Positions 707 through 61,102 of a DNA stretch of 64,000 nt are shown here, in pieces. How positions within the stretch are numbered: position 1 is the stretch's first letter; each line of letters begins with the position of its first letter. Under the pieces are notes generated by a model, which had not been told where the DNA came from, searched no databases, and saw only the letters and a list, made by a program, of their open reading frames with translations. The stretch is from positions 14,914 through 78,913 of the forward strand of contig CAIKZC010000010.1 in NCBI GenBank assembly GCA_903831815.1, written 5' to 3'. This DNA is from an uncultured bacterium. GTDB lineage: Bacteria > Patescibacteriota > Minisyncoccia > Phycocordibacterales > UBA11359. The position numbers and the translations under genes were made by a program.

Positions 707-730
707 AAAGCCTCATAGCGAGGCTTTTTT
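707..730 (+). terminator. Rho-independent terminator (AAAGCCTC-ATAGC-GAGGCTTT + T6)
   Basis: Perfect stem followed by TTTTTT directly after the glutaredoxin stop. Confidence 0.7.
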
Positions 731-763
731 GTTGCTCTGGTCTATGTTATAGTTTCCGTGCCT

Positions 764-835
764 GCCCTCGTAGTTCAACGGATAGAACGATTCCGTCCTA
801 AGGAATAAATGTAGGTTCAATTCCTGCCGGGGGCA
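764..835 (+). tRNA. tRNA-Arg (anticodon CCT), no encoded CCA
   Basis: Acceptor GCCCTCG/CGGGGGC, anticodon stem ATTCC/GGAAT with loop GTCCTAA, T-loop TTCAATT. Confidence 0.8.
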
Positions 836-887
836 CAAATCTTCAGTCTTTGTTTTTCGGCATATCTGTGTTATCCTAGAAAAACCG

Positions 888-1142
888 ATGGATGAACAAG
901 AGCGAAAAATGCTTGAAGAAGTGGTAGCACTTTCTCGAGAAAATAACGTTGCGATTCGCAAGTTGATGGCTTCTCATCGACGAACTGTGATTTGGCGTTC
1001 TATCTATTGGACAATCATAATCGGAAGTACTATTGCGGCTTATTATTCGATCCAGCCGTACATGACTTCGCTCATCAGTTTGTATAGCGGTCAAGATATT
1101 AGTAAAGTTCTTGATACCTTCAACGCTTCGACGAGTCATTAA
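888..1142 (+). CDS. Hypothetical small membrane protein (one TM segment)
   Basis: ORF between two tRNAs; hydrophobic stretch WRSIYWTIIIGSTIAAYY. Confidence 0.4.
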   Translation: MDEQERKMLEEVVALSRENNVAIRKLMASHRRTVIWRSIYWTIIIGSTIAAYYSIQPYMTSLISLYSGQDISKVLDTFNASTSH

Positions 1143-1144
1143 AT

Positions 1145-1220
1145 GCTGAGGTAGCTCAGTTGGTAGAGCATTTCCCTGAAGAGGAAGGGGTCGCCGGTTC
1201 GATCCCGGCCCTCAGCACCA
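1145..1220 (+). tRNA. tRNA-Phe (anticodon GAA), CCA encoded
   Basis: GCTGAGG...CCTCAGC acceptor, anticodon loop CTGAAGA, T-loop TTCGATC, 3' ACCA. Confidence 0.85.
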
Positions 1221-6710: not shown

Positions 6711-6785
6711 TGGTCGGGGCACTGGGATTTGAACCCAGAGTCTTACGTACCCGAAACGTAAATGTTACCGTTACACTATGCCCCG
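6711..6785 (-). tRNA. tRNA-Pro (anticodon CGG), CCA encoded
   Basis: Reverse complement folds: CGGGGCA acceptor, anticodon stem TACGT/ACGTA with loop TTCGGGT, T-arm CTGGG-TTCAAAT-CCCAG, ACCA. Confidence 0.8.
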
Positions 6786-6805
6786 AATAAAATATTACTT
6801 AAATG

Positions 6806-6879
6806 TGGGCGGTGAGGAATTCGAATCCACGACCCTCGTCACGTCAAGACGATGCTCTAACCAGCTGAGCTAACCGCCC
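6806..6879 (-). tRNA. tRNA-Val (anticodon GAC), no encoded CCA
   Basis: Reverse complement: GGGCGGT acceptor, D-arm GCTCAGCTGGTTAGAGC, anticodon stem TCGTC/GACGA with loop TTGACGT. Confidence 0.8.
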
Positions 6880-7562
6880 ATCAACTTAATGGTCTTTTCA
6901 CAGAACCTCCTACTAAGATAGACTAATTTTCTCTGTATGGCAACAGTGCAGCAATTAACTACGCAAACACCTTTATAATTTGGGTATGTTGGTTTGCCTA
7001 CAGTTCTTTGATCTATTGATACTTGAGTAAATCTTTCAATTGTGGCATTTAGTTCTTTTGACCAATATTTCTTCATCTCTTGTGGATTTTGGTCGGCACG
7101 TAAGTGTAATGCGTATCGTATTTTTGTTGAATCGATATTATATATTTTCTTCATTCCAATTAAGAAGAATTTTAAAATTAATGGGTCAGAATTTCCGAGA
7201 CACGTTTTGTTCTTTTTTGATCCTTCACCTAGATATAACATAGCTAGCGCGAGTTCAAATGTTTCTTTTGAAGAGAGGTCGATTTTATTTAAAACACTCA
7301 ATGCTTGTTGTTCGGCAAATTCTAACCGATGTTTTTTCTGTGTATTGTGCCAAACAACAGCGTTTTTTCTTGCGTTATTTAATGCGATTTCTGAATTATG
7401 TTTTAGTTTAGCTATTTGTTTTTTGTTTAAGGTAATATTTTTAAACCAACCGCTAAGTGTCGATCTGGGGATTTTTAATCTTTTTTCTATAACAACAATC
7501 GATTCACCTTGTTTTCTTAGATGTAGAGCTTTTGATTTTAATTTGATCCACTTTGATTTCAT
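6870..7562 (-). CDS. HTH-domain protein of unknown function (N-terminal resolvase/IS30-like helix-turn-helix); 3' end overlaps tRNA-Val by 10 nt
   Basis: N-terminal GESIVVIEKRLKIPRSTLSGW HTH-like segment; LYLGEGSK segment faintly reminiscent of LAGLIDADG; sits between tRNAs and a divergent malic enzyme gene. Confidence 0.4.
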   Translation of the reverse strand: MKSKWIKLKSKALHLRKQGESIVVIEKRLKIPRSTLSGWFKNITLNKKQIAKLKHNSEIALNNARKNAVVWHNTQKKHRLEFAEQQALSVLNKIDLSSKETFELALAMLYLGEGSKKNKTCLGNSDPLILKFFLIGMKKIYNIDSTKIRYALHLRADQNPQEMKKYWSKELNATIERFTQVSIDQRTVGKPTYPNYKGVCVVNCCTVAIQRKLVYLSRRFCEKTIKLMGG

Positions 7563-7636
7563 TTATCAAGGCTAACATTTCGGAGATAAACTTTTCTAAA
7601 GTTATCAACTTACAAAAATATGCTAGAATACACCCC

Positions 7637-8794
7637 ATGAATTACAAAAAAGAATCACTAAAGAGACATCTGAAATTTCAGGGCAAAATCGAAATTAAAA
7701 ATAAATTCCCAGCGATAAAAACAAAAGATGATTTAAGTGTGGCATATACTCCCGGTGTGGCCGAGGTGTCGTCATTTCTCGCTAAAAATCCGGATCAAGC
7801 GCGAAAGTACTCAATTAAAGGCAACACTATCGCCGTGGTCTCCGACGGCTCGGCGGTTTTGGGTCTTGGCAATATTGGTCCGTACGGCGCGCTGCCCGTG
7901 ATGGAAGGGAAGTCTTTGCTTTTTAAGGAATTTGGCAACGTGGACGCATATCCGATCGTTTTGGCGACGCAGGATACGGAGGAGATCATCAAGATCGTCA
8001 AAGCTATTGCGCCGACTTTTGGCGGCATAAATTTGGAAGATATTTCTTCGCCTCGCTGTTTTGAGGTAGAAGAAAGGTTAATTAAGGAATTGGACATTCC
8101 GGTCTTTCATGATGATCAGCATGGAACGGCGATCGTGATTTTGGCGGCGCTTATCAATAGTTTGAAGTTGGTGAAAAAGCAAAAAGAAAATATAAAAATG
8201 GTGATCTGTGGTGCGGGTGCAGCAGGCATGGCCACCACTAAATTGTTAGTGAAATTTGGAATTAAAAATATTGTTTTGGTTGATTCAAAAGGAATCGTTT
8301 CCAAGGATCGAAAGGACCTCAATGGTGTGAAAATAGAAATGCTCAAGCTGACCAATTCGCAGAACCTTTCTGGAAGTTTAGCTGATGCATTAAAAGGTAC
8401 CGATGTTTTTGTGGGCGTGAGTACTGCCAATATTTTGAAACCGGAATTTATTAAACTTATGGCTGACAAACCAATTATTTTCGCCATGGCCAATCCATGC
8501 CCGGAAATTATGCCCGACCTCGCCAAGAAAGCCGGAGCTTATATCGTCGGTACCGGCCGAAGTGATTTCCCTAATCAGATAAATAATGTACTAGTTTTTC
8601 CCGGTTTGTTTCGTGGTGTTTTAGATAACGGCATCAGGCTCATCACGGATGAAATAAAAATTGCGGTGGCTCAAACGCTTGCCGATTCGCTCGCCAAAAA
8701 AGATCTCAGCGTCGACAAAATCTTGCCGAGCACTTTGGATAAAAGTATCGCGCAGCTCATCTCCAAAAAATTGAAAAAATTCAAAGGAAAATAA
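7637..8794 (+). CDS. NAD(P)-dependent malic enzyme (small ~385-aa type)
   Basis: YTPGVAEV, VVSDGSAVLGLGNIGP, GAGAAG Rossmann motif, NQINNVLVFPG; start taken at the internal Met (ORF track start 7553 would overlap the divergent gene). Confidence 0.8.
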   Translation: MNYKKESLKRHLKFQGKIEIKNKFPAIKTKDDLSVAYTPGVAEVSSFLAKNPDQARKYSIKGNTIAVVSDGSAVLGLGNIGPYGALPVMEGKSLLFKEFGNVDAYPIVLATQDTEEIIKIVKAIAPTFGGINLEDISSPRCFEVEERLIKELDIPVFHDDQHGTAIVILAALINSLKLVKKQKENIKMVICGAGAAGMATTKLLVKFGIKNIVLVDSKGIVSKDRKDLNGVKIEMLKLTNSQNLSGSLADALKGTDVFVGVSTANILKPEFIKLMADKPIIFAMANPCPEIMPDLAKKAGAYIVGTGRSDFPNQINNVLVFPGLFRGVLDNGIRLITDEIKIAVAQTLADSLAKKDLSVDKILPSTLDKSIAQLISKKLKKFKGK

Positions 8795-8819
8795 AATCCA
8801 TTTGAAATGTTTTTATTTC

Positions 8820-8909
8820 TGGCGGAGAGGGGGAGATTCGAACTCCCGAAGAACTTTCGCCCTTGCTGGTTTTCGAAACCAGTGCTTTCGACCACTCAGC
8901 CACCTCTCC
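8820..8909 (-). tRNA. tRNA-Ser (anticodon CGA), long variable arm, CCA encoded
   Basis: Reverse complement: GGAGAGG acceptor, anticodon stem CTGGT/ACCAG with loop TTCGAAA, extended variable arm, T-loop TTCGAAT, GCCA. Confidence 0.8.
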
Positions 8910-8970
8910 GTGCCTCTAAACCTAACACTTTTTTGCTTTTTTATCAAAAAATGTTATATTCAAGCCTACC

Positions 8971-9045
8971 GGCTCTATCGTCTAACGGTTAGGACACGGC
9001 CTTTTCAAGGCTGGAATCGGGGTTCGATTCCCCGTAGAGTCACCA
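8971..9045 (+). tRNA. tRNA-Glu (anticodon TTC), CCA encoded
   Basis: GGCTCTA acceptor, anticodon stem CGGCC/GGCTG with loop TTTTCAA, T-arm CGGGG-TTCGATT-CCCCG, ACCA. Confidence 0.8.
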
Positions 9046-10673
9046 GTTAACTTTTTACGTCTCAAAAGGGCTTCAAAACCGTCTTTTCCCTTGAAATCTA
9101 CTAGCTTTTTGTTGTTAAAGGTAAGTTCGGTAAACATCATTGCTGCAATATCCCTTTTTTCATTATCAAGAGCGAATTTATAGTACAGGCTCGCACGTTT
9201 GATGAGTTCGGAAAAAGTTGTTACGTATTTGAGCATTTCTTGTGCGGCTTCGCCGTATGCTCCGGCTTTCTGTCTGATCTCATTTAGTTGTCCCATCAGC
9301 CTGTTCTCCTCGGTTTTGGCATCTTCAATGCTCATTGAGTTCGTCCTTAGAAGGGTAATACGATTTTTAGTTAGATAATCCAGATCCGCATAGACTCGCT
9401 TCTCTTGATTGTGAAGATCGTCGAGCTCTTTGTTGCGTTTTATGGTAATCGCATCTATACCTGAGCGTGCTTTGACCTCAAGTTCTCGCAATTCTTCATC
9501 ATCGAAATGCATGCGGTCCATTAGCGACTGTATACTCGCGTGGATATCGCTCTCTTTTAGATTTCTATCTGGGTTATTGCACGTTGCAGCACATCGCAGT
9601 CGATAGTAGCCGATACCCTTTCTTATATAATGACAATATGCACGGCCGCAAGTGCATCGAATCAGTTTTCTGTAAGTTGCGAACTTTTTATTGACGTAAT
9701 ATACCGATACACAACGCGCCTTCAGAACCTCTTGAACCTTATTAAAGAGACTAGTATCTATGAGTGGTTGATGCGCGGTTGAGATTATGAAGCCCTCTTT
9801 TGTTCTGTTCTGGCCTATATAAAATGGGTTAGTTAATATGTGCTCGATCGTTTTGTGTGTCACAGGTCTTGAAATCTTAGGCATCGTTTCGAGTTCTATA
9901 TTGGATAAAATCTGGTCCTCTGTTCTTTTGCCGCGAGAAGGTTTTGTCGTCAGCCCTTGTTCGTTGGCCCATTTACTCAACTCGAGTACACTCCAATCGC
10001 CTGTGGCGTACAATTCAAATATACGCTTTACAATAGGTGCTCGTACTGGGTCTATTGGTTTGTCACCTGATCCATTATCGAGATAGCCGGTAGGAGAGCA
10101 GTTAATGAACTTGCCCTCGGCTCGTAATTTTCTGTTTGTGTTTCTTACTTTTTCACTGATAACTCTAGAGTAGTGGGTAGAGAACATGCCATCGATGTCC
10201 ATGTGTAAGTCACCGGAGCTACTTTTTTCGTAAGTTGTTTCGGAAAATCTAATGTCGCAACCCAGCTTAAGTAACTTTTTGATGATTACGTCATCTTGCC
10301 CGTTGCGACTCGCTCGGTCCCAACATAGGAATATGGCCCCTTTTATTTCTTTATTCTTGAGCATTCCAACAAGTCGCAGAAACTTTGGTCTTTCGATTTT
10401 ATATTGGACAGTGCCGTTCGGCATAATTTCAAAACATTCATCTTCCTTGAAACCGGAATGTCTTTCATTGATAATCCCAGCATTGCAGAAGTTTGGTATT
10501 GTCAGATCGGCTATATTTAATTTTTCTCTTTTTGCGAATCGTAAGTTTGCACCCCTCTGATATTCCAAAGAATTTTTTTGGTTGTCGGCGTCATCTGTAC
10601 TCTTACGGTCGTACACGATGTGCATGTCCCTGAAAGGACTTGATGTTTGTTTTATCTGGTTCTGATTTTTCAT
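8982..10673 (-). CDS. Large serine recombinase/integrase (563 aa); 3' end reads through tRNA-Glu on the opposite strand
   Basis: N-terminal resolvase catalytic domain with YDRKST catalytic-serine context; recombinase domain, Cys-rich zinc-ribbon region (CTCGRAYCH...C) and coiled coil; last ~21 codons are the antisense of the tRNA. Confidence 0.75.
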   Translation of the reverse strand: MKNQNQIKQTSSPFRDMHIVYDRKSTDDADNQKNSLEYQRGANLRFAKREKLNIADLTIPNFCNAGIINERHSGFKEDECFEIMPNGTVQYKIERPKFLRLVGMLKNKEIKGAIFLCWDRASRNGQDDVIIKKLLKLGCDIRFSETTYEKSSSGDLHMDIDGMFSTHYSRVISEKVRNTNRKLRAEGKFINCSPTGYLDNGSGDKPIDPVRAPIVKRIFELYATGDWSVLELSKWANEQGLTTKPSRGKRTEDQILSNIELETMPKISRPVTHKTIEHILTNPFYIGQNRTKEGFIISTAHQPLIDTSLFNKVQEVLKARCVSVYYVNKKFATYRKLIRCTCGRAYCHYIRKGIGYYRLRCAATCNNPDRNLKESDIHASIQSLMDRMHFDDEELRELEVKARSGIDAITIKRNKELDDLHNQEKRVYADLDYLTKNRITLLRTNSMSIEDAKTEENRLMGQLNEIRQKAGAYGEAAQEMLKYVTTFSELIKRASLYYKFALDNEKRDIAAMMFTELTFNNKKLVDFKGKDGFEALLRRKKLTGDSTGNRTPIPALKRPCPNR

Positions 10674-16374: not shown

Positions 16375-17256
16375 ATGAAGATGATTATAGCGGTATTAGT
16401 TGTGATGTTTGTTTGTGCTGGCAACGTAATGGCTGGGGCATGGACCACCATTAACATACCTGGCGGCGGCACAAACTTGTTTGGGGTCAGTGGAAATAAC
16501 ATGGTTGGTAGTTCCTCTCGAGGTGGTTCATTCTACGATGGAACAAGCTGGGCTACCATTAACTATCCTGGGGCATCGAGTGCGGTCCCGTACGCGATCA
16601 GTGGCAACACTATCGTGGGTGAATACCGCGGAGGTACCCACAGTGGTCCTGGTAAGCAGGGCTATGGTTTCATCTATGACGGAACAAATTGGACCACCGT
16701 GGATGCCCCTGGACCAAACTACACAATTTTGTGCGGTATTTCTGGGAACAACATTGTTGGTCAGTACACCGATGCCTCTGACAACAATCACGGTTATTTC
16801 TACAATGGAACAAGTTGGGCGACCCTGGACTATCCTGGGGCAGGCGCAACATACCTACAAGGCATTTCCGGCACAAACATCGTTGGTTGGGAAGAAGGTG
16901 CTCCTGATGGTGACAACGCCTTTCTGTATGATGGAACGACGTGGAAAACTCTTGATATGCCCGGGGTGAATAGCTGGAGCATAGTTCCACGTGGCATTGA
17001 CGGCAGCAACATCGTTGGTTACTACAGCGCTCCAGACGCCACGCATGGTTTTCTCTACGACGGGACGACCTGGACCACACTTGATTACCCTGGGGCATTG
17101 GATACGATGGTGTATGGCATATCCGGTGGCGACATCGTTGGTGAGTATACTGACAACTCGGGGAACTATGGGTTTCTCTATACTGTTCCCGAACCAGCAA
17201 CACTTGGGCTGCTCAGTTTCGGTTTTCTGGCTCTGGTGCGCAGGCGACGGCGCTGA
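16375..17256 (+). CDS. Secreted repeat protein with a C-terminal PEP-CTERM sorting signal
   Basis: Signal peptide; about 7 repeats of a ~30-aa motif (Y/F)DGT(S/T)W(A/T)T(I/L)(D/N)YPGA...GISG.NIVG; C-terminus VPEPATLGLLSFGFLALVRRRRR-stop is a textbook PEP-CTERM (PEP, TM helix, Arg cluster); GC markedly above its surroundings. Confidence 0.7.
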   Translation: MKMIIAVLVVMFVCAGNVMAGAWTTINIPGGGTNLFGVSGNNMVGSSSRGGSFYDGTSWATINYPGASSAVPYAISGNTIVGEYRGGTHSGPGKQGYGFIYDGTNWTTVDAPGPNYTILCGISGNNIVGQYTDASDNNHGYFYNGTSWATLDYPGAGATYLQGISGTNIVGWEEGAPDGDNAFLYDGTTWKTLDMPGVNSWSIVPRGIDGSNIVGYYSAPDATHGFLYDGTTWTTLDYPGALDTMVYGISGGDIVGEYTDNSGNYGFLYTVPEPATLGLLSFGFLALVRRRRR

Positions 17257-18444: not shown

Positions 18445-19983
18445 TTATTTTGATCGCAGGGTATATATTATAAAGTTCGGTAAATAGGTAAACAGGGTCA
18501 CCATTGTTGATGGGTCTCGCAAATATTCTTGATATATGCTGTAAATAGGCGTTAGTTTTGTGGTTCCAAATTTCTCCCCAGAAAAAGGCAGATTTTCTGC
18601 AAAGATTAAATTTTGGAACCGTAGTCTTTTCTCCGGTTTCTTCTCTAGCTTGCGCCAAGTCTCGGCAGTTTTTCTGATGAAGCTAAAACAATACTCTAAG
18701 GCCTCGTCCATATTGAATTCTTCAACTCGTTTGTCGTGAATTTGAGATTCTTTCAGAGCGATTTTTCTGTTTACGTTATCTTTCTGCATTATGAACTCCT
18801 CTTTGGTGTAGGTGTTGGATTCTAGAAGTTCAAATACACGTTGTCGTTGTTGCTCCAGTACTTTTATCTCTTTTCTGATCTGTGCGTTCTGCTCGTCGAA
18901 GTTTTTAAAATTGTTTTTCCAAATATCTAGGACGATAGCTTTGAAGGCTTTTTCATATTGCATGCTTGGATTGATTTCGTTTAGGTGTTCGACGAACATC
19001 TGCTCAAATGATTCTTTAGGAATGAATTTAGCGTGTTCACATTTCTGCTTGTGGTGGTGATAGTATGGGTACCTCTTGCCCGCTTGTCCGGTTGAGTGGC
19101 TACCAGTTAGAGGTTCGTGGCAAAATTGACATACGGCCAATTTCCTTAAGGGGAAAGAGCTGTTGTGTGTCAGGTGTGGCGAGTTCTTGTGTTTGCGACC
19201 GGATTCTTGGCAGAGGTAGAAAAGATTTTCGTCTACGATTGGTTCAAATGAGCCTTTGCTATCAATGTCCCAAACTCGGATAATTCCGCAATAGAGAGGG
19301 TTCTTGATGATTTTCTCAACAAGCTGAGGGATAGCGGTATTGCCTTGTCTGGTGACGAAACCACGCTTGTTTAAGAAGGTTGCCAGAGAGATATAGGTGT
19401 AAGTACCTTTTGAATATTCTTGAAATGCCATTTTGATATAGGGAGCATACTTTGGATCGGGTACGAGGTTGCCGGCTTTTTCGGTTCGACAATATCCGAG
19501 TGGTGCTTGCCAGACCCAGATACCTTGCTTGATTCTTTCTCGCATACCGTTGACGCTTCTTTCTGTTCTTACGTTGTTATCAAATTCAGCAAAACCGGAG
19601 AGCATGACTTCCATGAGTTTGCCGGATGGAGTGTCATCTATTTTTTCAGAAACGGAACGAATTTCGGTGCCGTAATTTTTGAGTTTTTGTTTGACGATGG
19701 CATAGTCAGTTTGGTTGCGGGAAAATCTATCGATTTTGTAGACGATAAAATAGGCAACTTTATTTTTCTTGTTGGAGCAAAGTGAAATGGCTTTGATGAA
19801 TTCAGTACGATCAGCAGTTTTTGCAGACTCGCCACGTTCGATATAAATCTGGAGGATGTTTACATTTTCTCGTTTAGCATATTCCTTGCACATACGCTCT
19901 TGAGATTCCAAACTGGTGCCGTCAACTTGTTCGAGTGAAGAGACTCGACAATATATTATTCCATTTTTGAGTTCGTTATTCAT
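18445..19983 (-). CDS. Large serine recombinase (512 aa), paralogue of the 26322..27860 recombinase
   Basis: YCRVSSLEQ catalytic-serine motif, resolvase domain, recombinase domain, Cys/His-rich zinc module (CQFCHEPL...YYHHHKQKCEH), C-terminal coiled coil. Confidence 0.75.
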   Translation of the reverse strand: MNNELKNGIIYCRVSSLEQVDGTSLESQERMCKEYAKRENVNILQIYIERGESAKTADRTEFIKAISLCSNKKNKVAYFIVYKIDRFSRNQTDYAIVKQKLKNYGTEIRSVSEKIDDTPSGKLMEVMLSGFAEFDNNVRTERSVNGMRERIKQGIWVWQAPLGYCRTEKAGNLVPDPKYAPYIKMAFQEYSKGTYTYISLATFLNKRGFVTRQGNTAIPQLVEKIIKNPLYCGIIRVWDIDSKGSFEPIVDENLFYLCQESGRKHKNSPHLTHNSSFPLRKLAVCQFCHEPLTGSHSTGQAGKRYPYYHHHKQKCEHAKFIPKESFEQMFVEHLNEINPSMQYEKAFKAIVLDIWKNNFKNFDEQNAQIRKEIKVLEQQRQRVFELLESNTYTKEEFIMQKDNVNRKIALKESQIHDKRVEEFNMDEALEYCFSFIRKTAETWRKLEKKPEKRLRFQNLIFAENLPFSGEKFGTTKLTPIYSIYQEYLRDPSTMVTLFTYLPNFIIYTLRSK

Positions 19984-26285: not shown

Positions 26286-26335
26286 GCCCTTATATTTCCA
26301 CAAAGTTGGTTCCAATTCCATCTAACGTGGGTCAC
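26286..26335. repeat. Direct repeat copy 2 (matches 25694..25743); its GGGTCAC end abuts the left inverted repeat of the recombinase element
   Basis: GCCCTTATATTTCCACAAAGTTGGTTCCAATTCCATCTAACGTGGGTCAC. Confidence 0.6.
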
Positions 26336-27860
26336 ATTCAGATACTTCGGCAGTGGTGAGCGTAAAATGGGAGCGCGCCGCAGGCGCGCTGTAGGGTGAG
26401 AGGGAGGATTTCCCCTTGCGGGTGCGGACGAAAATGGAGGGCGGGCAAAATGAGATTGAGATAGTTTTGTCTTTTAGCGCGGGGTTCGTTCCAAAAGAGC
26501 GGAGAAAATCTCTCATCTCATGGAGATTTTCGCCCGTTGCCAGAAACCCCGCGCGTTTTGAATCCAAAATCCATTTCCGCAGGGGTTCGACCCAATTCTT
26601 TCTCTCGGCTCGGGCAGATGAAGATTTTGCTTGAAGCGAAAGTTTTTGACGCATGAGTGCGTCTTTTTTGGTCAAATATATCTCGCGCTCAATATCTTGG
26701 TTTAAGTACAAATCAACAAGTGCGTCTAACTTCGCTTCAAGAGTCTTCAAATCTTCCTTCATCTGCCCGAGACGATTTCCCGAAGCGTTGATTTCATCGT
26801 GCTCAAATTCTCCAACTTTTTTGAGCATATAATCTGCCCACGCTTCGGGAAACGACACTGATTGAAGCTGTTCCTTTATTTGGAGAGCGAGCGCACCTTC
26901 CTGCAAATATCCCTGACTACATTTTCCTTTCTTTTTCGTGCAACGATAATAGCGATACCTCCCGCCCATTTTTCCAGTACACCATTGAGCAGTAATCATA
27001 GAGTCACATTCGCCGCAACGAAAAAGACCGGTGAAAGGAAAATTGTGGGATATTTTGCTATGCCTCGGATGCGCTCGCTCCTCCAATCTTTTCTGTACAG
27101 CTTCAAACAGGGTCGGAGAAAGAATCGGTGCAAAGCTTCCGGGAAAAAATTCCCCATGATGTTTGGTGAAGCCGAGATACGCTCGATTGGTCAATATTCT
27201 TTTCACGGAAGCTTTGCCAAGTGGCGTTCCGGACTTTTGTGCTACACCGTGGAGAGCCAAAAACTGCGACAACGAAACTAGGGTATGTGAACCTTTTACA
27301 TATTCTTCATATGCTCGAACAATGATTTTAGATTTCACTGGATCAGGCTCTATGTTACGCGTAACGGGATTGTTCACATACCCGAATGGAGCCCGAGTCA
27401 ACCACTCTCCTCGTCGCAGTTTTTGGCGCATACCTCGCTCAACGTTTTGCTTTAAGTTGTCAGAATAATACTTACTTTGTCCGAACGCCACTTGAAGCAT
27501 AAAGAGACCATGCGGAGTTGGCTCAAACCAAAATGTCGGAAAGCGCAAAGAGACTATTTTAGAAGTGTCGACGGCATAAATGATGCGTCCACCGTCAATG
27601 CTGTTTCTGGCTAGACGGTCGGGGTGCCAGGCGAGAATTCCAACATTACCGACTTTCTCAATTTTAAGCATCATTTTGCCGAACACTTCTCTTCCGGGGC
27701 TCTTGGCGCTTTTCGACTCTTGAAATTCCTCAAGGATTTCAAGATTTTCTCTGCTCGCAAATTCACGAAGTTCTACAAGCTGGGCAGGAATGCTCATGAC
27801 TTGCTTGTCGTCATCTTCAGTACTCTTGCGAGCATAGAGAAAATATTTTGGTTTGTTCAT
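26322..27860 (-). CDS. Large serine recombinase (512 aa) of the IS-like element
   Basis: YARKSTEDDD catalytic-serine motif; resolvase + recombinase domains; zinc ribbon CGECDSM...YYRCTKKKGKC; coiled coil; last ~45 codons lie inside the left inverted repeat. Confidence 0.75.
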   Translation of the reverse strand: MNKPKYFLYARKSTEDDDKQVMSIPAQLVELREFASRENLEILEEFQESKSAKSPGREVFGKMMLKIEKVGNVGILAWHPDRLARNSIDGGRIIYAVDTSKIVSLRFPTFWFEPTPHGLFMLQVAFGQSKYYSDNLKQNVERGMRQKLRRGEWLTRAPFGYVNNPVTRNIEPDPVKSKIIVRAYEEYVKGSHTLVSLSQFLALHGVAQKSGTPLGKASVKRILTNRAYLGFTKHHGEFFPGSFAPILSPTLFEAVQKRLEERAHPRHSKISHNFPFTGLFRCGECDSMITAQWCTGKMGGRYRYYRCTKKKGKCSQGYLQEGALALQIKEQLQSVSFPEAWADYMLKKVGEFEHDEINASGNRLGQMKEDLKTLEAKLDALVDLYLNQDIEREIYLTKKDALMRQKLSLQAKSSSARAERKNWVEPLRKWILDSKRAGFLATGENLHEMRDFLRSFGTNPALKDKTISISFCPPSIFVRTRKGKSSLSPYSAPAARSHFTLTTAEVSECDPR

Positions 27861-28021
27861 ATATATGTTTTGGATTCAAAAAAGGAAACTATCTCAATCT
27901 CATTTTGCCCGCCCTCCATTTTCGTCCGCACCCGCAAGGGGAAATCCTCCCTCTCACCCTACAGCGCGCCTGCGGCGCGCTCCCATTTTACGCTCACCCC
28001 TGCCGAAGTATCTGAATGTGA
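26333..28021. mobile_element. Compact IS-like element: one large serine recombinase gene bounded by ~135-bp near-perfect terminal inverted repeats
   Basis: Reverse complement of 26333..26467 matches 27886..28021 almost perfectly (1-2 mismatches seen by eye); the repeats are far more GC-rich than flanking DNA, carry an internal palindrome GCGCGCCGCAGGCGCGC, and enclose only the recombinase. Confidence 0.65.
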
Positions 28022-28070
28022 TCTAATTGTATCCTTTGGAAAAAAGTTCGTGCAAAGGATACAATTAGAT
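28021..28070. terminator. Perfect 18-bp-stem hairpin (ATCTAATTGTATCCTTTG...CAAAGGATACAATTAGAT) abutting the right element end; likely terminator of the downstream minus-strand methyltransferase gene and/or insertion target
   Basis: Perfect inverted repeat with 14-nt loop, located between IRR and the stop of 28091..29023. Confidence 0.45.
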
Positions 28071-28090
28071 CACCGCGTCATTTTATTTTT

Positions 28091-31080: not shown

Positions 31081-31098
31081 AGTTTAGACATTATATCG

Positions 31099-31214
31099 CA
31101 AAGCACAGAAAAGAGCGACCGAGAGGGGCTCTCGGACGCCGACGGGCGGAGAGTGAGCGCAATTTTCAGCAGAAAATTGACGCGGACCCTCGAGGTGCTT
31201 TTTTCTGTGCTTTG
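31099..31214. repeat. GC-rich structured palindromic repeat, copy a (family of three copies in this window)
   Basis: Perfect 16-18-bp outer stem GCAAAGCACAGAAAAG/CTTTTTTCTGTGCTTTGC enclosing the conserved core GAGGGGCTCTCGGACGCCGACGGGCGGAGAGTGAGCGCAATTTTCAGCAGAAAATTGACGCGGACCCTC. Confidence 0.7.
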
Positions 31215-31221
31215 CTTTAAA

Positions 31222-32439
31222 CTATTTAATCTTTGATCGTCTTAGAAACGCCGGTACTGCGCCCCAGTCATCGTCATGTTCTTCAATCTGTGGTAACTTC
31301 TTGTCATCAGTAATAACCGTAACTTTCGGAGTTTCTTTAACTTCTGCCTTTGTCTCTTTTGGAGTACTAATACTGTTGAAAATTTTACCTCGTTTTTCTT
31401 TTTCCTCAGGTTCTGCTGCTGCAGTGTGGGTAGGGAACAAAGAATGTTTAGCGGTGCCACCCGGGAATCCGGCTGCAACTACAGTCACACGCACTTCACC
31501 TTTTTGCATTCGATCATCGTGAATAGTTCCGAAAATAACTTTGGCGTCACTGTCGATAGATTCGGTAATAATTTTGGCTGCATCCTGAATTTCGTACATC
31601 GTGAGGTCATCACCGCCGGCAATCGAGAAGAGTACACCTTTGGCTCCGTGAATTGAAAGATCAAGAAGAGGAGAATTGATAGCGGCCTTGGCTGCGTCCT
31701 CCGCTCGTTTCTCGCCACTGCCGTTTCCAACACCCATAAGCGCGGAACCGGAGTTTTGCAAAATTGATCGGATATCGGCGAAGTCGATGTTGATAAATCC
31801 AGGGATGGTAATAAGATCGGAAATTCCTTCAACGGCTTGTTTCAAAACTTCATCGCAAGTTGCGAATGCGCTTTTGGCAGTCGTCTCTTTTGTAATGACG
31901 GCAAGTAATCGATCGTTTGGAATGACAATAATGGCATCAACTTCTTTGCGAAGTTCTTCGAGACCTTGTTCAGCCAATCGCATTCGGTGTTGTCCTTCAA
32001 AGAAAAATGGTTTGGTAACAACTGCGATGGTGAGTGCGCCTTGTTCTTTGGCGGTACGTGCAATACCGGGAGCTGCACCGGTGCAAGTGCCTCCGCCGAA
32101 ACCACCGGCGATAAAGACCATGTCTGCGCCTTTCAAAGCTTCCTGAACTTCTTCTTTGGTTTCTTCAACGGCGCGTTTGCCCATGTCCGGATTCATGCCA
32201 GTCCCGAGACCTTTAGTGAGGTTTTTGCCGATGTGAATTTTTTTCTGCGCTAGAGAATTATGTAAATCTTGAGCATCTGTGTTAATGGCAATAAATTCAA
32301 CACCTTTAACTTTGGCGTTGACCATGTGATTGAGGGCGTTTTTGCCGGATCCACCGACACCGACAACCTTTATTCGAGCAAATGTTTGAACTTCTGGTTT
32401 TATTTGTGGCATGTTGTTTGCAGGTCTTTTTGAGGCCAT
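31222..32439 (-). CDS. ftsZ: Cell division GTPase FtsZ
   Basis: Tubulin signature GGGTCTGAAPGIA, VGVGGSGKNALNHM, Lys-rich C-terminal tail. Confidence 0.9.
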   Translation of the reverse strand: MASKRPANNMPQIKPEVQTFARIKVVGVGGSGKNALNHMVNAKVKGVEFIAINTDAQDLHNSLAQKKIHIGKNLTKGLGTGMNPDMGKRAVEETKEEVQEALKGADMVFIAGGFGGGTCTGAAPGIARTAKEQGALTIAVVTKPFFFEGQHRMRLAEQGLEELRKEVDAIIVIPNDRLLAVITKETTAKSAFATCDEVLKQAVEGISDLITIPGFINIDFADIRSILQNSGSALMGVGNGSGEKRAEDAAKAAINSPLLDLSIHGAKGVLFSIAGGDDLTMYEIQDAAKIITESIDSDAKVIFGTIHDDRMQKGEVRVTVVAAGFPGGTAKHSLFPTHTAAAEPEEKEKRGKIFNSISTPKETKAEVKETPKVTVITDDKKLPQIEEHDDDWGAVPAFLRRSKIK

Positions 32440-35418: not shown

Positions 35419-35437
35419 AAACCAACTTCAATAAGCA

Positions 35438-35480
35438 AACGGGACTTTCCTTTCGGAAAGTCCCGTTATCTTTTGTATTT
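35438..35480. terminator. Strong bidirectional intrinsic terminator (AACGGGACTTTCC-TTTC-GGAAAGTCCCGTT + T-run)
   Basis: Perfect 13-bp stem between convergent genes, followed by atcttttgtattttttt. Confidence 0.75.
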
Positions 35481-38485: not shown

Positions 38486-38586
38486 ACTAACCTCCATGTT
38501 TGTTGGAGACACTGAGACCTATTTGTACTGCAACTCTGGCATGAATATACCACAGCTTCTGTAAAAAACAAGTTTAATTTTATAAA

Positions 38587-38696
38587 CAAAAGAAAATAGC
38601 AGTTTTGAGGGACTCACGGAGCGCGACGGCGCGAGTGTGAAGGAAATTTCCAGCAGGAAATTTACCTGTGCCCTCAAAACTGCTATTTTCTTTTGT
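38587..38696. repeat. GC-rich structured palindromic repeat, copy b
   Basis: Perfect 26-bp outer stem ACAAAAGAAAATAGCAGTTTTGAGGG/CCCTCAAAACTGCTATTTTCTTTTGT enclosing core GAGGGACTCACGGAGCGCGACGGCGCGAGTGTGAAGGAAATTTCCAGCAGGAAATTTACC. Confidence 0.7.
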
Positions 38697-38705
38697 TTCT
38701 TATTC

Positions 38706-39866
38706 CTACTTCTTTCCTACAAACGCTAATGCCATTTTTTGATCCTTGGCATCAAATAAAGTTATCTTGAAATCGTAAGTCTTTCCAAGTTCAAGAGCTT
38801 CTCGAAGTTTGTCATCACTTCCAAATTCTGAAACGTGTACTAATCCAGCAATTCCTTCTTCAATCGAAGCCAACGCACCGTGTCGATTGTATTTAATGAT
38901 GACACCTTTGACCAAAGCATCTTTCTTGTATTTCTTTGAAGCTTCAACCCAAGGATTTGGTTTCAAAGCTTTGATTGAAAGAGAAATTTTATTGTCTTTG
39001 ATCTCAATAATTTTCACTTTGACAGTTTCGCCAACTTTGTAGAGAGCGCGAGGATCTTCAACGAGTGACCAATCGAGTTCGGAGATGTGGACAAGTCCTT
39101 CCAAACCTTCCTCGATCTTGACGAAGATTCCAAAATCAACGGTACCGGTGACTTCACCTTTAACTTCATCGCCAACCGTATATTTGCCGATAATTTTCTC
39201 TTTATCTTTTTGGGTTGGGCTCTTTTCTGAGAAAATAAGTTTGCCTTCCTTTGGAGTTGCACCAATAATCGTGACGTGAATTTTTGTATTTACTAATTTT
39301 CGCAATTCCTCAAGAATTTTATCCTTGTCGCCATCAACGATGCGAGGATAATGCTCAGGTTTAAGTTGTGAAGCCGGCAAAAATCCTTGGATGCCTTGCC
39401 ACAATATAATAAGACCACCTTTGTTGGCATCGGTGACCATGACTTCGATCAAAGTTTTATTCTTGATTGCTTCCTCGGCTTCGTTCCAGATAATTGCTTG
39501 CTTTGCTTCCTTGAGAGAAAGCTCGATGTATCCTTCAACGTTGTCGATATCAATAACTTTGGCTGCAACTTTGTCGCCAATGTTTATTTTTCGAACGATA
39601 TCGCGAGCGTTGGTAAATTCGCGACCGTAAATAATACCAGTTCCGTATGGAGCTAGATCTACATATACGGCAGCTTTGTCGATACTGATAACTGGACCTT
39701 CAACCATGTCGCCGACGTTTGGAGTCGCGATTGATTGCTCGATAAATTTAACCATTGGACCAGTAAGAACAGGCACAACAGGGGATTTACCTTTTTTAAC
39801 CTTTGCTAAAATTCCTTCCGCAGGTTTTTTACCTGCAGTTTTTTCGACTGCAACTTCTTTTTTCAT
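38706..39866 (-). CDS. rpsA: 30S ribosomal protein S1 (four S1 domains)
   Basis: Four tandem S1/OB repeats (GDMVEGPVISIDKAAVYVDL..., GDKVAAKVIDIDN..., GDEVKGEVTGTVDFGIFVK..., ALVKGVIIKYNRHGALASI). Confidence 0.75.
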   Translation of the reverse strand: MKKEVAVEKTAGKKPAEGILAKVKKGKSPVVPVLTGPMVKFIEQSIATPNVGDMVEGPVISIDKAAVYVDLAPYGTGIIYGREFTNARDIVRKINIGDKVAAKVIDIDNVEGYIELSLKEAKQAIIWNEAEEAIKNKTLIEVMVTDANKGGLIILWQGIQGFLPASQLKPEHYPRIVDGDKDKILEELRKLVNTKIHVTIIGATPKEGKLIFSEKSPTQKDKEKIIGKYTVGDEVKGEVTGTVDFGIFVKIEEGLEGLVHISELDWSLVEDPRALYKVGETVKVKIIEIKDNKISLSIKALKPNPWVEASKKYKKDALVKGVIIKYNRHGALASIEEGIAGLVHVSEFGSDDKLREALELGKTYDFKITLFDAKDQKMALAFVGKK

Positions 39867-44763: not shown

Positions 44764-44794
44764 CAGACGAGACATTAAAAATATAAAAAAGGAA

Positions 44795-44823
44795 GCGCAG
44801 TTTTGCTCGGAGCAAAACTGCGC
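44795..44823. terminator. Bidirectional terminator hairpin (GCGCAGTTTTGC...GCAAAACTGCGC)
   Basis: Perfect ~12-14-bp stem between convergent gyrA and 44840..45181, with an A-run upstream and T-rich downstream. Confidence 0.6.
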
Positions 44824-44839
44824 TTTCACGTTTCTGGCA

Positions 44840-49383: not shown

Positions 49384-49421
49384 GGGAGAAAGAAAAAGTA
49401 AAAAAAGAAATAAAAAAAGAT

Positions 49422-49449
49422 GGCGCGGGACTCAGCTGAGTCCCGCGCC
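49422..49449. terminator. Perfect 28-bp palindrome GGCGCGGGACTCAG/CTGAGTCCCGCGCC (bidirectional terminator)
   Basis: Flanked by A-run upstream and TTTTG downstream, between the plus-strand TrbC array and the minus-strand GC island. Confidence 0.65.
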
Positions 49450-49467
49450 ATTTTGCTTCGCATGTAG

Positions 49468-52816: not shown

Positions 52817-52897
52817 TGGGCGAGGGGGGACTTGAACCCCCACGCCTTGCGGCACTAGCTCCTAAGGCTAGCGTGTATGCCATTTCACCACTCGCCC
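52817..52897 (-). tRNA. tRNA-Leu (anticodon TAG), long variable arm, no encoded CCA
   Basis: Reverse complement: GGGCGAG acceptor, anticodon stem CTAGC/GCTAG with loop CTTAGGA, long variable arm, T-arm GGGGG-TTCAAGT-CCCCC. Confidence 0.75.
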
Positions 52898-52924
52898 ATG
52901 AATGATCTTTCTTCGCATACCTTG

Positions 52925-52997
52925 TGCACCCAGTTGGATTCGAACCAACGACCGTCTCCTTAAGAGGGAGTCGCTCTACCAACTGAGCTATGGGTGC
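52925..52997 (-). tRNA. tRNA-Lys (anticodon CTT), no encoded CCA
   Basis: Reverse complement: GCACCCA acceptor, D-arm AGCTCAGTTGGTAGAGC, anticodon loop CTCTTAA, T-loop TTCGAAT. Confidence 0.7.
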
Positions 52998-53062
52998 ATT
53001 TCTTTTAATACTCGAAAAATTTAACAGATTTTTCGACTTTCGGCAAATTTTCTTTTTACCGG

Positions 53063-53144
53063 TGCCCAGGGCGGGAATCGAACCCACATCCCTTGCGAGA
53101 CAACATTTTAAGTGTTGCGTGTATACCAGTTCCACCACCTGGGC
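53063..53144 (-). tRNA. tRNA-Leu (anticodon TAA), long variable arm
   Basis: Reverse complement: GCCCAGG acceptor, anticodon stem CAACA/TGTTG with loop CTTAAAA, long variable arm, T-loop TTCGATT. Confidence 0.75.
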
Positions 53145-53200
53145 ATTTTTAATTTATTAAAAAACAGAAATGTTTTTTGCTAATAGATACACTATTAGTG

Positions 53201-53274
53201 AGGCGTAGATCAGGTTCGAACTGATGCATAGCAGTTTTGCAGACTGCCGCGTTAACCAACTTCGCCACTACGCC
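53201..53274 (-). tRNA. tRNA-Cys (anticodon GCA), no encoded CCA
   Basis: Reverse complement: GGCGTAG acceptor, anticodon stem GCAGT/ACTGC with loop CTGCAAA, T-loop TTCGAAC, discriminator U. Confidence 0.75.
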
Positions 53275-58040: not shown

Positions 58041-58159
58041 CCTCGCGACATCGAATCAGTTTTCGCAGAACATCAGCCGCCACAATCCTGTGGCGGCTTT
58101 TCATTTTTTTTGAATTGTCATTTTAGAATTCTGAAAACGGCATTTATAGTGCAACCTTA

Positions 58160-58269
58160 AGCTTCCGGGAGTGCTATCTGAGGGGACTCTCGGACGCCGA
58201 CGGGCGGAGAGTGAACGAAATTTCCAGCAGGAAATTTACGCGGGCCCCGAAGATAGCACTCGCGGAAGC
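58160..58269. repeat. GC-rich structured palindromic repeat, copy c
   Basis: 19-bp outer stem GCTTCCGGGAGTGCTATCT/AGATAGCACTCGCGGAAGC (1 mismatch) enclosing core GAGGGGACTCTCGGACGCCGACGGGCGGAGAGTGAACGAAATTTCCAGCAGGAAATTTACGCGGGCCCC. Confidence 0.7.
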
Positions 58270-58369
58270 GTAAATTTGACTCCCACTTTTTAATTTTGCA
58301 TAATTGGGGTATCCGAACGACTTATTTCTGAATTCCTCTATTAACGCCTTAATTTAAGCCATTTTAACT

Positions 58370-61102
58370 ATGTTACCATTCAATCATTTCACAACTAAAG
58401 CCAAAGAAGCTATTCGCCGAGCGCACGAACTCGCCATTGAACGTGGCCAAAATCACGTCAATCCGATGCACTTGCTGGCCGCTCTCATTTTGCAGGAGGA
58501 AAGCATGGTCACTTCCATTTTGGAAAAATTGGAAATCGACACCATGTTGTTGACCGATTCGATTCTAGAAACTATTGAAGGAGCCGAAGGTGGTTCATCA
58601 ACTTTGTCGCCTTCATATCAAATTTATTTGACTCCGGAATTGAGTCAGGCAATTGAGTCGTCGGCCAAAATTGCCGAATCACTCAAAGATGAATTTGTTT
58701 CGACTGAACACTTGTTTATTTCCGTACTAGAAGTGCCGGGTGCTGCGCGAGAAATGCTGACAAAATTTAAGATTGATAAAAATGCGGTGCTCAAAGTGTT
58801 GGAAGAAATTCGAACGACCAAAACGGCCGATGTTAAAGAGTCTAAGAAATTTAAATCGCTTTTGAAATACACTCGAAACCTGACGACGCTTGCTCGCGAA
58901 AATAAACTTGATCCTGTCATCGGCCGTGACGCGGAAATTTCGCGCATCATTCAAATTCTTTCTCGTCGCACCAAAAATAATCCGATTTTGATTGGTGAAG
59001 CCGGGGTTGGTAAGACGGCAATCGTTGAAGGTCTGGCAATTCGTATGTCGGTTGGCGATATTCCTGAATCTCTCAAAGACAAGGAACTTGTTTCTCTTGA
59101 TCTTGGTTTGCTTATTGCTGGCACAAAATATCGTGGCGAGTTTGAAGAGCGTTTGAAGAATATTATGAAAGAGATCGAGCGTGCTGACGGCAAGATCGTT
59201 CTCTTTATTGATGAGATCCACACGATTGTCGGAGCTGGCGCAGCCGAAGGTGCGATGGATGCTTCCAACATGTTGAAACCTGCTCTGGCTCGCGGAGAAC
59301 TTCGAGCGATTGGTGCGACGACGACCAAGGAATATCAAAAACATATTGAAAAAGATCCAGCGTTGACTCGTCGTTTCCAGCCGGTCTATGTCAACGAGCC
59401 TAGTATTGACGATGCGATCGCAATCATGCGCGGACTCAAAGAAAAATATGAGTTGTATCACGGCGTGCACATTACTGATGATGCAATTGTCGCTGCGGTA
59501 AATCTTTCTAGTCGATATATTTCTGATCGATTTTTGCCTGACAAAGCAGTGGACTTGGTTGATGAAGCTGCTTCAGCTCTCCGTATTTCGTTGGAAAACA
59601 AACCACCGATTCTTGAGGAAACAGATCGAAAAATTGTGCGTTTGGAAATCGAGCGTGAAGCTCTAAAAAAAGATGCCGTTCATTCAAAAGTAGCTAAGGC
59701 TCGCACCAAAGTTATCGAAGCTGAAATTGCTAACTTACGAGAGAAAACCAGCGAGCTTGAACTTAAATGGAAAAATGAAAAAGATACTTTGACTGGCATC
59801 AAATCGATTAAAAAAGAATTAGAACAGTTGCGAAATGAAGCGGAAGGTGCAGAAGCTCGCGCCGACCTTTCTCGCGCAGCTGAAATTCGTTACGGAAAAA
59901 TTCCTGAACTTCAAAAAGATTTGGAAACCAAGACCAAACGTCTGAAACGTTTGCAAAGTACTCGCCGGATTCTCAAGGAAGAGGTGACTGAAAATGATAT
60001 TGCGCAGGTCGTGGCAAAGTGGACCAGTATTCCGGTCACTCGCATGCTTGAAGAGGAAGCTCAAAAACTGACTCGCATGGAAGACGACCTCAAAAAGAAA
60101 ATTGTCGGCCAAGACGAAGCTGTTAAAAAGATTTCCGACACCATCAAACGTTCTCGTGCCGGTATTGCCGATCCAAATCGTCCAATTGGTTCGTTTATTT
60201 TCCTTGGACCTACAGGAGTTGGTAAAACGGAACTGACCAAAAAACTAGCCGAGTTCATGTTCGACGACGAGAAAGCTTTGATCCGCGTTGATATGTCCGA
60301 ATTCATGGAACGACATTCAGTTTCAAAATTGATTGGTGCGCCTCCAGGCTATGTCGGATATGAAGAAGGCGGTAACTTGACCGAAATGGTGCGTCATCGA
60401 CCGTATGCCGTGATTCTTTTCGACGAGATCGAAAAAGCCCACCCGGAAGTTTTCAACGTGCTTCTACAGGTGCTTGATAACGGACGATTGACGGATGCTA
60501 AGGGGCGATTGGTGAACTTCAAAAACACTATCATTATAATGACATCAAACGTTGGTGCTCAGCATATTCAGAAAATGGAAAAAATTGGTTTCGGCGGTGT
60601 TGAGACCGACATCCAGAAATATCAAAGTGTTAAAGAAAAACTTAGTTCATCGCTCAAAGATTATTTCCGTCCGGAATTCTTGAACCGTATTGATGACATT
60701 ATTATCTTTGATATCTTGAACGAGAAAGCTATTGAAGAAATTGTGAAAATTCAAGTTGATATTGTTAAGGAGCGATTGTCGGTCAAAGATATCAAACTCG
60801 ATATTACTCCCGATGTTTACAAATATCTGGCCAAGGAAGGTTACAATCCGGAATACGGTGCACGACCTTTGAAACGTTTGATTCAGACCAAGATTCTAAA
60901 TCCTGTCGCTAACCTCATTATCTCACAAGGTGTAATGAAGGGCGGAGAGATTATGGTGGGAATTAAATCAGTTGATGCAAAATCGACAGAAGTGCAGAGT
61001 GTGCAAACGGGTGTACAACCAGTCGAATTTACTTTTGAGGTCAAGAAAGGGAAAAGGGGATCGATTGTCACATCGGCGATTGAGCAAGCGATGAGTAAGT
61101 AA
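58370..61102 (+). CDS. clpB: ATP-dependent chaperone ClpB (AAA+ disaggregase)
   Basis: Clp N-domain, two AAA+ modules ([13 protein letters not shown]; [15 protein letters not shown]), long middle coiled-coil domain between them. Confidence 0.85.

Follow-up and report, generated by a model that had tools for sequence, protein, structure and literature searches.

Rickettsia palindromic elements, ERIC, Correia elements and bcr1 are conserved from end to end, terminal inverted repeats included, and in most cases show direct target duplications. Other elements settle in palindromes or at gene ends, namely IS1397 and ISKpn1 in the loops of repetitive extragenic palindromic sequences (REPs), class C group II introns by terminators and Tn7 behind glmS, all of them autonomous, protein-coding and served by known enzymes. 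REPs themselves are simple palindromes of 20–40 bp with a GTAG or CGTC head at one end and a conserved stem, and are usually species- or genus-specific (PMC3733652). The element described here, present in three copies (a, b and c) in a 64,000-nucleotide stretch from an uncultured member of the Patescibacteriota (contig CAIKZC010000010.1; the whole 64-kb stretch is called the window), is a widespread, previously uncatalogued, strongly covarying non-coding repeat of Patescibacteria that is absent from Rfam. It is preferentially read, at about even confidence, as a dispersed non-coding, non-autonomous structured repeat lodged in the loops of terminators.

In its behaviour (extragenic, at gene ends, gained and lost), the element is like REPs and BIMEs or like miniature inverted-repeat transposable elements (MITEs), without the defining features of those families. 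Similarly to REPs, BIMEs and REPINs, it is a short, intergenic, non-coding hairpin repeat, located mostly just 3′ of genes, between co-directional or convergent reading frames, and varying in copy number among relatives; the proposed roles as terminator or mRNA 3′ stabiliser, and the proposed strand-specific recognition of folded single-stranded DNA (ssDNA), are common to both. However, the conserved part of a REP is its stem, whereas the element has a conserved 65–73-nt three-way junction at the apex of a variable stem. Moreover, CGTC (GACG on the plus strand) is found in the apical loop of hairpin A and not in a terminal position, the hairpin ends share no conserved motif, and conservation backed by covariation extends across divergent lineages of the candidate phyla radiation (CPR). 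REPs are served by a cognate RAYT, a transposase of the IS200/IS605 Y1 type whose gene the repeats flank. The open reading frames (ORFs) between clustered inverted copies in contig L094 are not RAYT-like by inspection, no systematic search for RAYT having been made. As to MITEs, which are defined by direct target-site duplications together with conserved terminal inverted repeats, the copies share only the 4–5-bp stem P1 and even P1 covaries, while the flanks are locus-specific inverted, not direct, repeats; the element is not a terminal-inverted-repeat transposon, in agreement with an initial annotation made from the sequence alone. With Rickettsia palindromic elements, ERIC, Correia and bcr1 it shares the character of ~100–150-nt dispersed, non-autonomous repeats that are often co-transcribed and strain-variable, but its outer 20–30 bp consist of inverted repeats peculiar to each locus, without a visible direct duplication. 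In landing at gene ends, where a terminator or palindrome offers a safe site, and in preferring one orientation, it recalls IS1397/ISKpn1, class C introns and Tn7, from which it differs in being a 70-nt non-coding module inside the loop. Finally, bidirectional intrinsic terminators have the same position and the same A-tract/stem/T-tract anatomy, and plain versions of this kind exist at the same sites in relatives; in the element, however, the 65–73-nt junction replaces the loop of 3–8 nt, and the stems are AT-rich and 20–30 bp long.

The initial annotation had proposed three loci sharing one core, and repeat, pattern and model searches return exactly these three copies, all on the plus strand, with a core of 65–73 nt. 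The repeat search gives a single three-member family (D4; identity 71–89%), degenerate patterns built on one or the other half of the core match at these three places in the window and nowhere else, against a chance expectation of 0.02 to 1, and a covariance-model search of the window with filters off detects only the three copies, at 86–92 bits (Table 1). The quoted core consensus was accurate, as were the compensatory changes, AATTTTC/GAAAATT versus AATTTCC/GGAAATT and CGCC/GGCG versus GCGC/GCGC. In RNA folding, none of 200 shuffled controls was as stable as copies a, b and c, and the same fold is obtained for the window copies with DNA parameters. Two descriptions had to be corrected, namely that each copy possesses a perfect outer stem and that the elements are perfectly palindromic: the stem is perfect in copy b only (inverted repeat I2, 100% complementary), copy a having a G·T pair, a bulge and a tandem GA/GA and copy c having mismatches, and the core itself is not palindromic. 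A GC content of ~60% was correctly assigned to the core (55–62%), but not the ~38% assigned to the genome, since the window ranges over ~36–49% and lies near 42%.

The consensus was parsed from ~98 copies and is supported by alignments A1 (73 sequences) and A2 (123 model hits). The outer stem, whose median length is 27 bp and whose sequence is specific to each locus, has an A-rich 5′ arm and a T-rich 3′ arm, and a tandem 5′-GA/5′-GA frequently lies just outside P1. P1, of 4–5 bp, is followed by a junction A or G and by hairpin A, composed of C-U-C-N-C, GGA, four covarying pairs, the loop GACG, GA and G-N-G-U-G; after a junction A comes hairpin B, with 3–4 pairs followed by 7–8 pairs, a loop that usually reads AGCA and an A bulged out of the 3′ strand, and a final junction G-(U/G)-N precedes P1′. 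The variable position N3/N23 of hairpin A is U-A, A-U or G-C, and C2-G24 changes into A-U in variants outside the search pattern. These changes establish a register with a conserved U·U mismatch and a 3×2 GGA/GA internal loop, and this register is fixed by the covariation of pairs 11-75, 12-73 and 13-72 in the model-fitted alignment. A tertiary contact between N3/N23 and the first triplet of hairpin B was considered and abandoned, the two being associated without strict linkage, which is read as subfamily structure. An extra hairpin is nested inside hairpin A at L139:2071-2157 (model match of 87–99 nt), in the same genome as L003:7047-7145.

Covariation is very strong. In 113 distinct sequences, 95.2% of the cells hold standard pairs and both sides change in 23 of the 24 pairs; cells changed on both sides amount to 761 versus 219 in shuffles, the observed value being reached by none of 500 shuffles, and pairing falls to 37–49% when the 3′ partners are slid by 1–3 columns (numbers somewhat inflated by the fitting of A2 to the model, with which the MAFFT alignment nevertheless agrees). 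The occurrence of hairpin B in AU-rich and GC-rich versions, for instance AAAUUUUC/GAAAAUUU and GCCCGGGCC/GGCCCGGGA, puts the conservation of pairing beyond doubt. Selection on structure rather than on sequence, first suggested from three copies, is thus confirmed on the family.

Further copies, anticipated in related genomes, were found in related and in more distant Patescibacteria. With a strict pattern, the element is retrieved in Candidatus Taylorbacteria, in Parcubacteria GW2011_GWA2_40_14 and in an uncultured Saccharibacteria bin, a match in a Lachnospiraceae genome being dismissed as due to chance. A looser pattern matches at least 120 metagenome contigs; among the matches listed, ~98 are real and the remainder are high-GC coding matches. 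A model search of 693 kb of Patescibacteria DNA gave 123 matches, including ~25 additional divergent copies in the flanks of the loci analysed. Altogether, some 120 copies beyond those of the window are known from genomes and metagenomes of Patescibacteria. The density is ~1 copy per 10–20 kb (three in 64 kb in the window, two in 21 kb in L132 and two in 17 kb in L133, the two closest relatives). The proteins most closely related to FtsZ and S1 of the window carry the labels Paceibacterota, Taylorbacteria or Patescibacteria. No match was found in viral contigs scanned by pattern, so that a phage origin is unsupported.

The statement that no named RNA family corresponds to the element holds against Rfam 15: the whole window yields only tRNAs at gathering thresholds, copy a at E ≤ 10 yields nothing relevant apart from Ysr49, whose 18 bits fall below its threshold of 95, and three other loci at E ≤ 1 yield no match at the element positions. 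Neither of the two permissive searches gave a group II intron match. A full-text literature search found no description of the element. Comparison by eye with consensus sequences showed no fit to hammerhead, twister-type or K-turn motifs, to domains V–VI of group II introns, or to signal recognition particle RNA, 5S RNA or Y RNA, the strands and loops of the junction being mismatched.

The position of the copies relative to genes was counted from crude ORF calls. In 40 of the 48 cases counted, the right arm lies within ±16 nt of the stop codon of a minus-strand gene (median offset −2 nt), whereas the left arm comes within 30 nt of the stop of a plus-strand gene in only 10 of 31. A location just downstream of genes, originally ascribed to all three window copies, applies to a and b, although they lie 4–8 nt beyond stop codons of genes on the opposite (minus) strand; it does not apply to copy c, which lies 100 nt before clpB and 120 nt after a 264-aa plus-strand ORF that is equipped with a terminator of its own. 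The adjoining genes across the family encode EF-G, GyrA, GyrB, S9, L11, L7/L12, S1, GroES, GrpE, SecY, SecA, FtsZ, FtsA, LepA and RNase J, that is, housekeeping and typically highly expressed functions, and beyond this no functional theme was found among the other neighbours.

A plus-strand gene is located to the right of 27 copies and starts at a median distance of 30 nt, and copy c precedes clpB. Together with the three-way junction atop a terminator-like stem, this would suit a cis-regulatory leader, in other words a riboswitch or thermosensor aptamer set in a terminator and controlling the right-hand plus-strand gene. This is barely credible, given that the right-hand genes are functionally unrelated, whereas a riboswitch would be expected in sense in the 5′ UTR of related genes, that most copies are met instead by the 3′ end of a convergent gene, and that a separate, better clpB promoter follows copy c.

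Relative to the upstream ORF, the structured strand is the antisense one and begins directly past the stop codon, and structure is conserved above sequence; both are properties of attC sites, the folded ssDNA at the 3′ ends of integron cassettes on which integrase acts through the strand antisense to the ORF. Attributing the element to this type is nevertheless highly improbable. Integron attC sites have conserved outer R″/R′ boxes (RYYYAAC/GTTRRRY), a variable apex, an organisation in cassette arrays and an adjacent tyrosine integrase, and the element is reversed in this respect, with a conserved apex, outer R/L boxes that are not conserved and no conserved GTTRRRY-type ends. Furthermore, its neighbours are housekeeping genes in conserved synteny (ftsA-ftsZ-trxB) instead of cassettes, its copies are dispersed and not arrayed, and no integron integrase was seen adjacent, the three recombinases of the window being serine recombinases 3–20 kb off.

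The common plus-strand orientation stated initially is correct for the window, but is not a rule of the family, since other contigs carry copies in both orientations; that the three window copies agree is consequently ascribed to chance. Replication strand was rejected as the determinant of orientation, on account of a coding-corrected GC skew of the flanking genes of ~−0.02, of a skew at third codon positions (GC3) that is negative in 18 cases and positive in 14 (p = 0.11) and of the mixed orientation within contigs.

Sites are filled in some relatives and not in others. The ftsZ-trxB site is filled in the window and in L133 (FtsZ 90% identical), L135 (91%) and L136 (88%), with diverged cores and partly alignable arms that differ by paired changes. 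The same site is empty in L132 (FtsZ 92% identical), where the spacer has 10 nt, and in L137 and L138 (78–80%) the spacer is a plain terminator, CAAAACACAGACCACC-TTTCATA-GGGTGGTTTTTGTTTTG. Downstream of the S1 gene, the window, L133, L139 and L140 carry the element, the positional orthologue of copy b in L133 being divergent, and plain terminators, such as CAACAAAAAACTCGC-TCT-GCGAGTTTTTTGTTG, are found in L141 and L142 (79–81%). Conversely, the site after a gene with an HGTP-anticodon domain is filled in L132 and is a plain 13-bp GAAA hairpin in the window, and the core of that L132 copy is nearly identical to that of window copy b, which stands at a different locus. Non-orthologous copies are more similar than positional orthologues. 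In one lineage, a ~112-nt block comprising the core, an 18-bp proximal stem and a 3×3 purine loop recurs in eight unrelated gene contexts, with sharp edges and its own 7–13-bp inverted repeat around each copy. The subfamily with this proximal stem (GCAAGAAYAYAGTGCTAG / YTAGTACTRTRTTTTGC) and 3×3 purine internal loop (L020, L040, L044, L054, L060, L061, L082, L118 and L126) includes two core subtypes, CTCTC...GCG and CTCAC...AGG, with the same arms.

These comparisons bear on the possibility of ordinary terminators, vertically inherited with a lineage-specific apical domain and kept alike by common selection or gene conversion. A location at the stop codons of highly expressed genes, the A-rich 5′ and T-rich 3′ arms and the orthologous copies of the window, L133 and L135, with arms differing by paired changes, would all be expected of such terminators. 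However, the 112-nt block with its sharp edges in eight unrelated contexts, the near-identical cores at different loci of related genomes, the coexistence of filled and empty sites among relatives with 88–92% identical FtsZ and the presence of the less stable strand of the element in the RNA of the upstream gene make this explanation quite improbable.

The 5′ arms of plain terminators resemble the outer arms of the element at the same site (CAACAAAAA--ACTC versus CAACAAAAAGTACTC, with AAAAAACTC in L139, and CAAAACACAGA versus CAAAGCACAGA), with shuffle p-values of 0.015–0.03 in local alignments versus 0.47–0.6 for cross-site controls, a similarity that is suggestive of the origin of the stems. 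An inverted duplication of the target at insertion was discarded, because the empty ftsZ-trxB site of L132 contains neither arm; the arms were therefore not copied from that flank. That the outer stems differ between copies was rightly noted at first, these stems being locus-specific, but they are better explained as resident terminator arms with rapid compensatory drift than as a designed part of an RNA. Two further insertions were seen at the same sites. After the S1 gene of L132 (L132:3658-3795), there is a different long hairpin of ~135 nt without element-model match, which may represent a second family of terminator-tip inserts. In L136 (L136:1367-1510), an insertion of ~140 nt with its own hairpins and a canonical terminator separates the ftsZ stop from the element and is bordered by direct copies of the final ftsZ codons, AAGATTAAATAA.

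The two strands of the element are not equivalent. Non-Watson–Crick pairs in the core are G·A (77), A·A (23) and G·T (30) as against C·T (1), T·T (3) and A·C (16), and those of the outer stem are G·A (162) and G·T (73) as against A·C (29); in the 39 copies whose plus strand is antisense to the adjoining gene, G·T pairs exceed A·C pairs (36 versus 12) and G·A pairs exceed C·T pairs (78 versus 7). The conserved unpaired bases of the plus strand are almost all purines (G14 G15 A16, G66 A67, GACG, A84, AGCA, A113 and G118), and in 79 of the 84 copies the plus strand is the more stable one, with a mean difference of 7.0 kcal/mol; for the three window copies, DNA parameters give the same result. The asymmetry of pairs, the purine loops and the stability indicate that folding selection acts on the plus strand.

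The same properties, with the deep covariation across lineages and, at copy c, which is enclosed by a terminator and the clpB promoter, a promoter-like site ending 10 nt ahead of the hairpin base, are those expected of genes for a new stable structured non-coding RNA, transcribed from the plus strand, which would form a protein-bound or catalytic particle whose long stem needs only pairing and whose copies would be paralogues rather than selfish DNA. But the best-folding strand is antisense to the adjoining gene in 40 cases and sense in 10 (~4:1), the RNA of the upstream gene carrying the minus strand in ~4/5 of cases, and a sigma-70-like promoter is found at the hairpin base on the plus strand in only 8 of 81 copies, copy c included (four have one on the minus strand). 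The hypothesis of an own promoter was rejected, there being no enrichment and no positional or conserved motif in the flanks. As the better-folding strand is usually antisense and has no promoter of its own, an RNA acting in trans from these loci is doubtful. In addition, the 3′ arm overlaps the stop of the convergent gene in half of the copies, the next start being a few to tens of nt away, turnover is fast, with non-orthologous copies more alike than orthologous ones, and the density in the window and its two closest relatives, ~1 copy per 10–20 kb, counts against it as well. Genes for such an RNA are thus unlikely. The initial annotation had left the choice between a structured RNA and a REP/MITE-like repeat; the latter is closer in behaviour, and an RNA acting in situ is unsupported or unproven, in view of strand, promoters, turnover and likeness among copies.

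Three sources of the polarity are possible. The first is a strand-specific propagation intermediate or binding partner, of ssDNA or RNA. The second is a selected insertion orientation that places the GC-rich hairpin A, in mRNA sense, beside the U-rich 3′ arm; in that orientation, the mRNA strand of copy a offers a canonical terminator hairpin, CCGAGAG-CCC-CUCUCGG. The third is low-level antisense transcription.

The preferred reading, a repeat lodged in terminator loops, can be detailed as follows. Each locus would be a hairpin of ~115–125 nt at a gene end, whose A-rich/T-rich outer stem corresponds to the intrinsic-terminator-like hairpin of the gene and whose apical loop holds the conserved 65–73-nt three-way-junction module. 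We infer that this module spreads into terminator loops, the resident terminator supplying the locus-specific stem, which would then drift and lengthen with its pairing kept; template-switch correction is a known way of keeping quasi-palindromes perfect. Most likely, the composite hairpin still serves as terminator or 3′-end hairpin of the upstream, typically housekeeping, gene, and the module would be kept by strand-specific constraints, probably the recognition of one strand, as ssDNA or RNA, by a propagating or binding factor. The turnover, the plain terminators at the same sites, the sharp edges of the block and the palindromes devoid of core fit a loop-entering module.

Several points weigh against this reading. 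No transposase, reverse transcriptase or other partner gene turned up, no systematic search having been made, and neither a target-site duplication nor an exact insertion junction was defined. A consensus terminator scan flags only the local minus-strand hairpin of copy a, the composite hairpin not fitting. MAFFT alignment of orthologous spacers does not place plain arms against element arms, whose similarity is short and modestly significant. The antisense bias of the best-folding strand counts in the same direction, as does the sequence conservation of the unpaired purines across divergent CPR lineages, a trait that would be more usual in a functional RNA than in REP-like selfish DNA. A bolder version, namely a new non-coding mobile element without any gene, homing with polarity into the loops of CPR intrinsic terminators via a folded ssDNA or RNA that an enzyme of the host or of another source would recognise, or else the RNA of a new CPR-wide ribonucleoprotein, is proposed tentatively and is less likely than not.

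Table 1. Coordinates of the element copies, their neighbours and other features in the 64-kb window
Feature	Position	Strand	Remarks
Copy a, whole hairpin (outer stem and core)	31098..31215	+	Fold −72.2 kcal/mol, z −9.3; inverted repeat I1
Copy a core, three-way junction	31121..31193	+	Model R1 86.8 bits, E 2.6e-23; repeat-search core 31125-31189
Copy a, P1	31123-31127 with 31187-31191	+	
Copy a, hairpin A	31129-31155	+	
Copy a, junction A	31156	+	
Copy a, hairpin B	31157-31183	+	
Copy a, junction GGA	31184-31186	+	
Alternative GC-rich hairpin of copy a	31119..31135	−	CCGAGAG-CCC-CTCTCGG; terminator-like match on mRNA strand, then T-rich 3′ arm
Copy b, whole hairpin	38584..38698	+	28-bp perfect stem including P1; −65.6 kcal/mol, z −12.4
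Copy b core	38605..38677	+	Model R1 92.0 bits, E 7.6e-25; repeat-search core 38609-38673
Copy c, whole hairpin	58161..58269	+	−66.9 kcal/mol, z −8.4; inverted repeat I3
Copy c core	58179..58251	+	Model R1 85.9 bits; repeat-search core 58183-58247
Thioredoxin-reductase-like gene (trxB)	start at 31080	−	Other flank of copy a, 18 nt away
TATAAT region before trxB	31081-31097	−	TATAAT ~11 nt before ATG
ftsZ	31222..32439	−	Pfam Tubulin/FtsZ_C; stop codon 31222-31224 adjoins copy a
S1-domain (rpsA-like) gene	38706..39866	−	Pfam S1, three repeats; stop 38706-38708, copy b 7 nt past
Promoter-like site TTTAGA-17-TATAGT	58122..58150	+	9/12 consensus matches; ends 10 nt before base of copy c
Second promoter-like site	58276-58304	+	Consensus scan; between copy c and clpB, better one for clpB
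clpB	58370..61102	+	Pfam AAA_2/ClpB_D2-small/Clp_N; 3′ of copy c
Palindrome without core	49417-49454		19-bp arms, 0-nt loop
Palindrome without core	44793-44825		16-bp arms, 1-nt loop
Palindrome without core	28018-28073		21-bp arms, 14-nt loop
Palindrome without core	35433-35472		13–18-bp arms, GAAA loop
Serine recombinase gene	8982-10673	−	Resolvase and Recombinase domains
Serine recombinase gene	18445-19983	−	Resolvase and Recombinase domains
Serine recombinase gene	26322-27860	−	Resolvase and Recombinase domains
GC-rich non-coding stretch	27880-28000		Upstream of 21-bp inverted repeat
Tandem repeat	61635-62490		Period 162 nt
Tandem repeat	16525-17147		Period ~126–141 nt
tRNA gene cluster	278-1217		
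tRNA gene cluster	6714-9042		
tRNA gene cluster	52817-53274		

Among the window copies, only copy c could be transcribed independently in the plus sense, judging from the promoter-like site at its base. The alternative minus-strand hairpin of copy a has the look of an intrinsic terminator. On the other side of copy a, the thioredoxin-reductase-like gene has a TATAAT box just before its ATG, conserved in L133 and L135, and no Shine–Dalgarno sequence, which suggests a leaderless mRNA starting directly after the element (in L132, this gene instead follows ftsZ at 10 nt). Long plain palindromes without core occur past gene ends at four places and are candidate plain terminators or ‘empty’ sites.

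Other features of the window lie apart from the copies. Three serine recombinase genes in 20 kb suggest that the region at 9–28 kb contains integrated mobile DNA; the inverted repeats at 26.6–27.4 kb fall inside one of these genes and are unrelated to the element, and the GC-rich non-coding stretch separates a serine recombinase gene from a methyltransferase gene. The two tandem repeats, with units 60–84% identical, may be part of repeat-containing coding sequence. Eleven tRNA genes in three clusters help to identify the window as chromosomal DNA.

A large share of bacterial diversity belongs to the Patescibacteria, whose non-coding DNA, terminators and mobile elements are almost undescribed. 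The element is abundant, easily recognised and strongly structured, and its covariance model would offer better annotation of CPR genomes and a marker for strain-level variation. That the best-folding strand is usually not the transcribed one raises a testable question, namely which single-stranded nucleic acid is the target of recognition and what recognises it. If colonisation of terminator loops is true, the element would be selfish DNA in a ‘safe harbour’ that preserves host function, and would help to explain the unusually long gene-end palindromes of the reduced CPR genomes.

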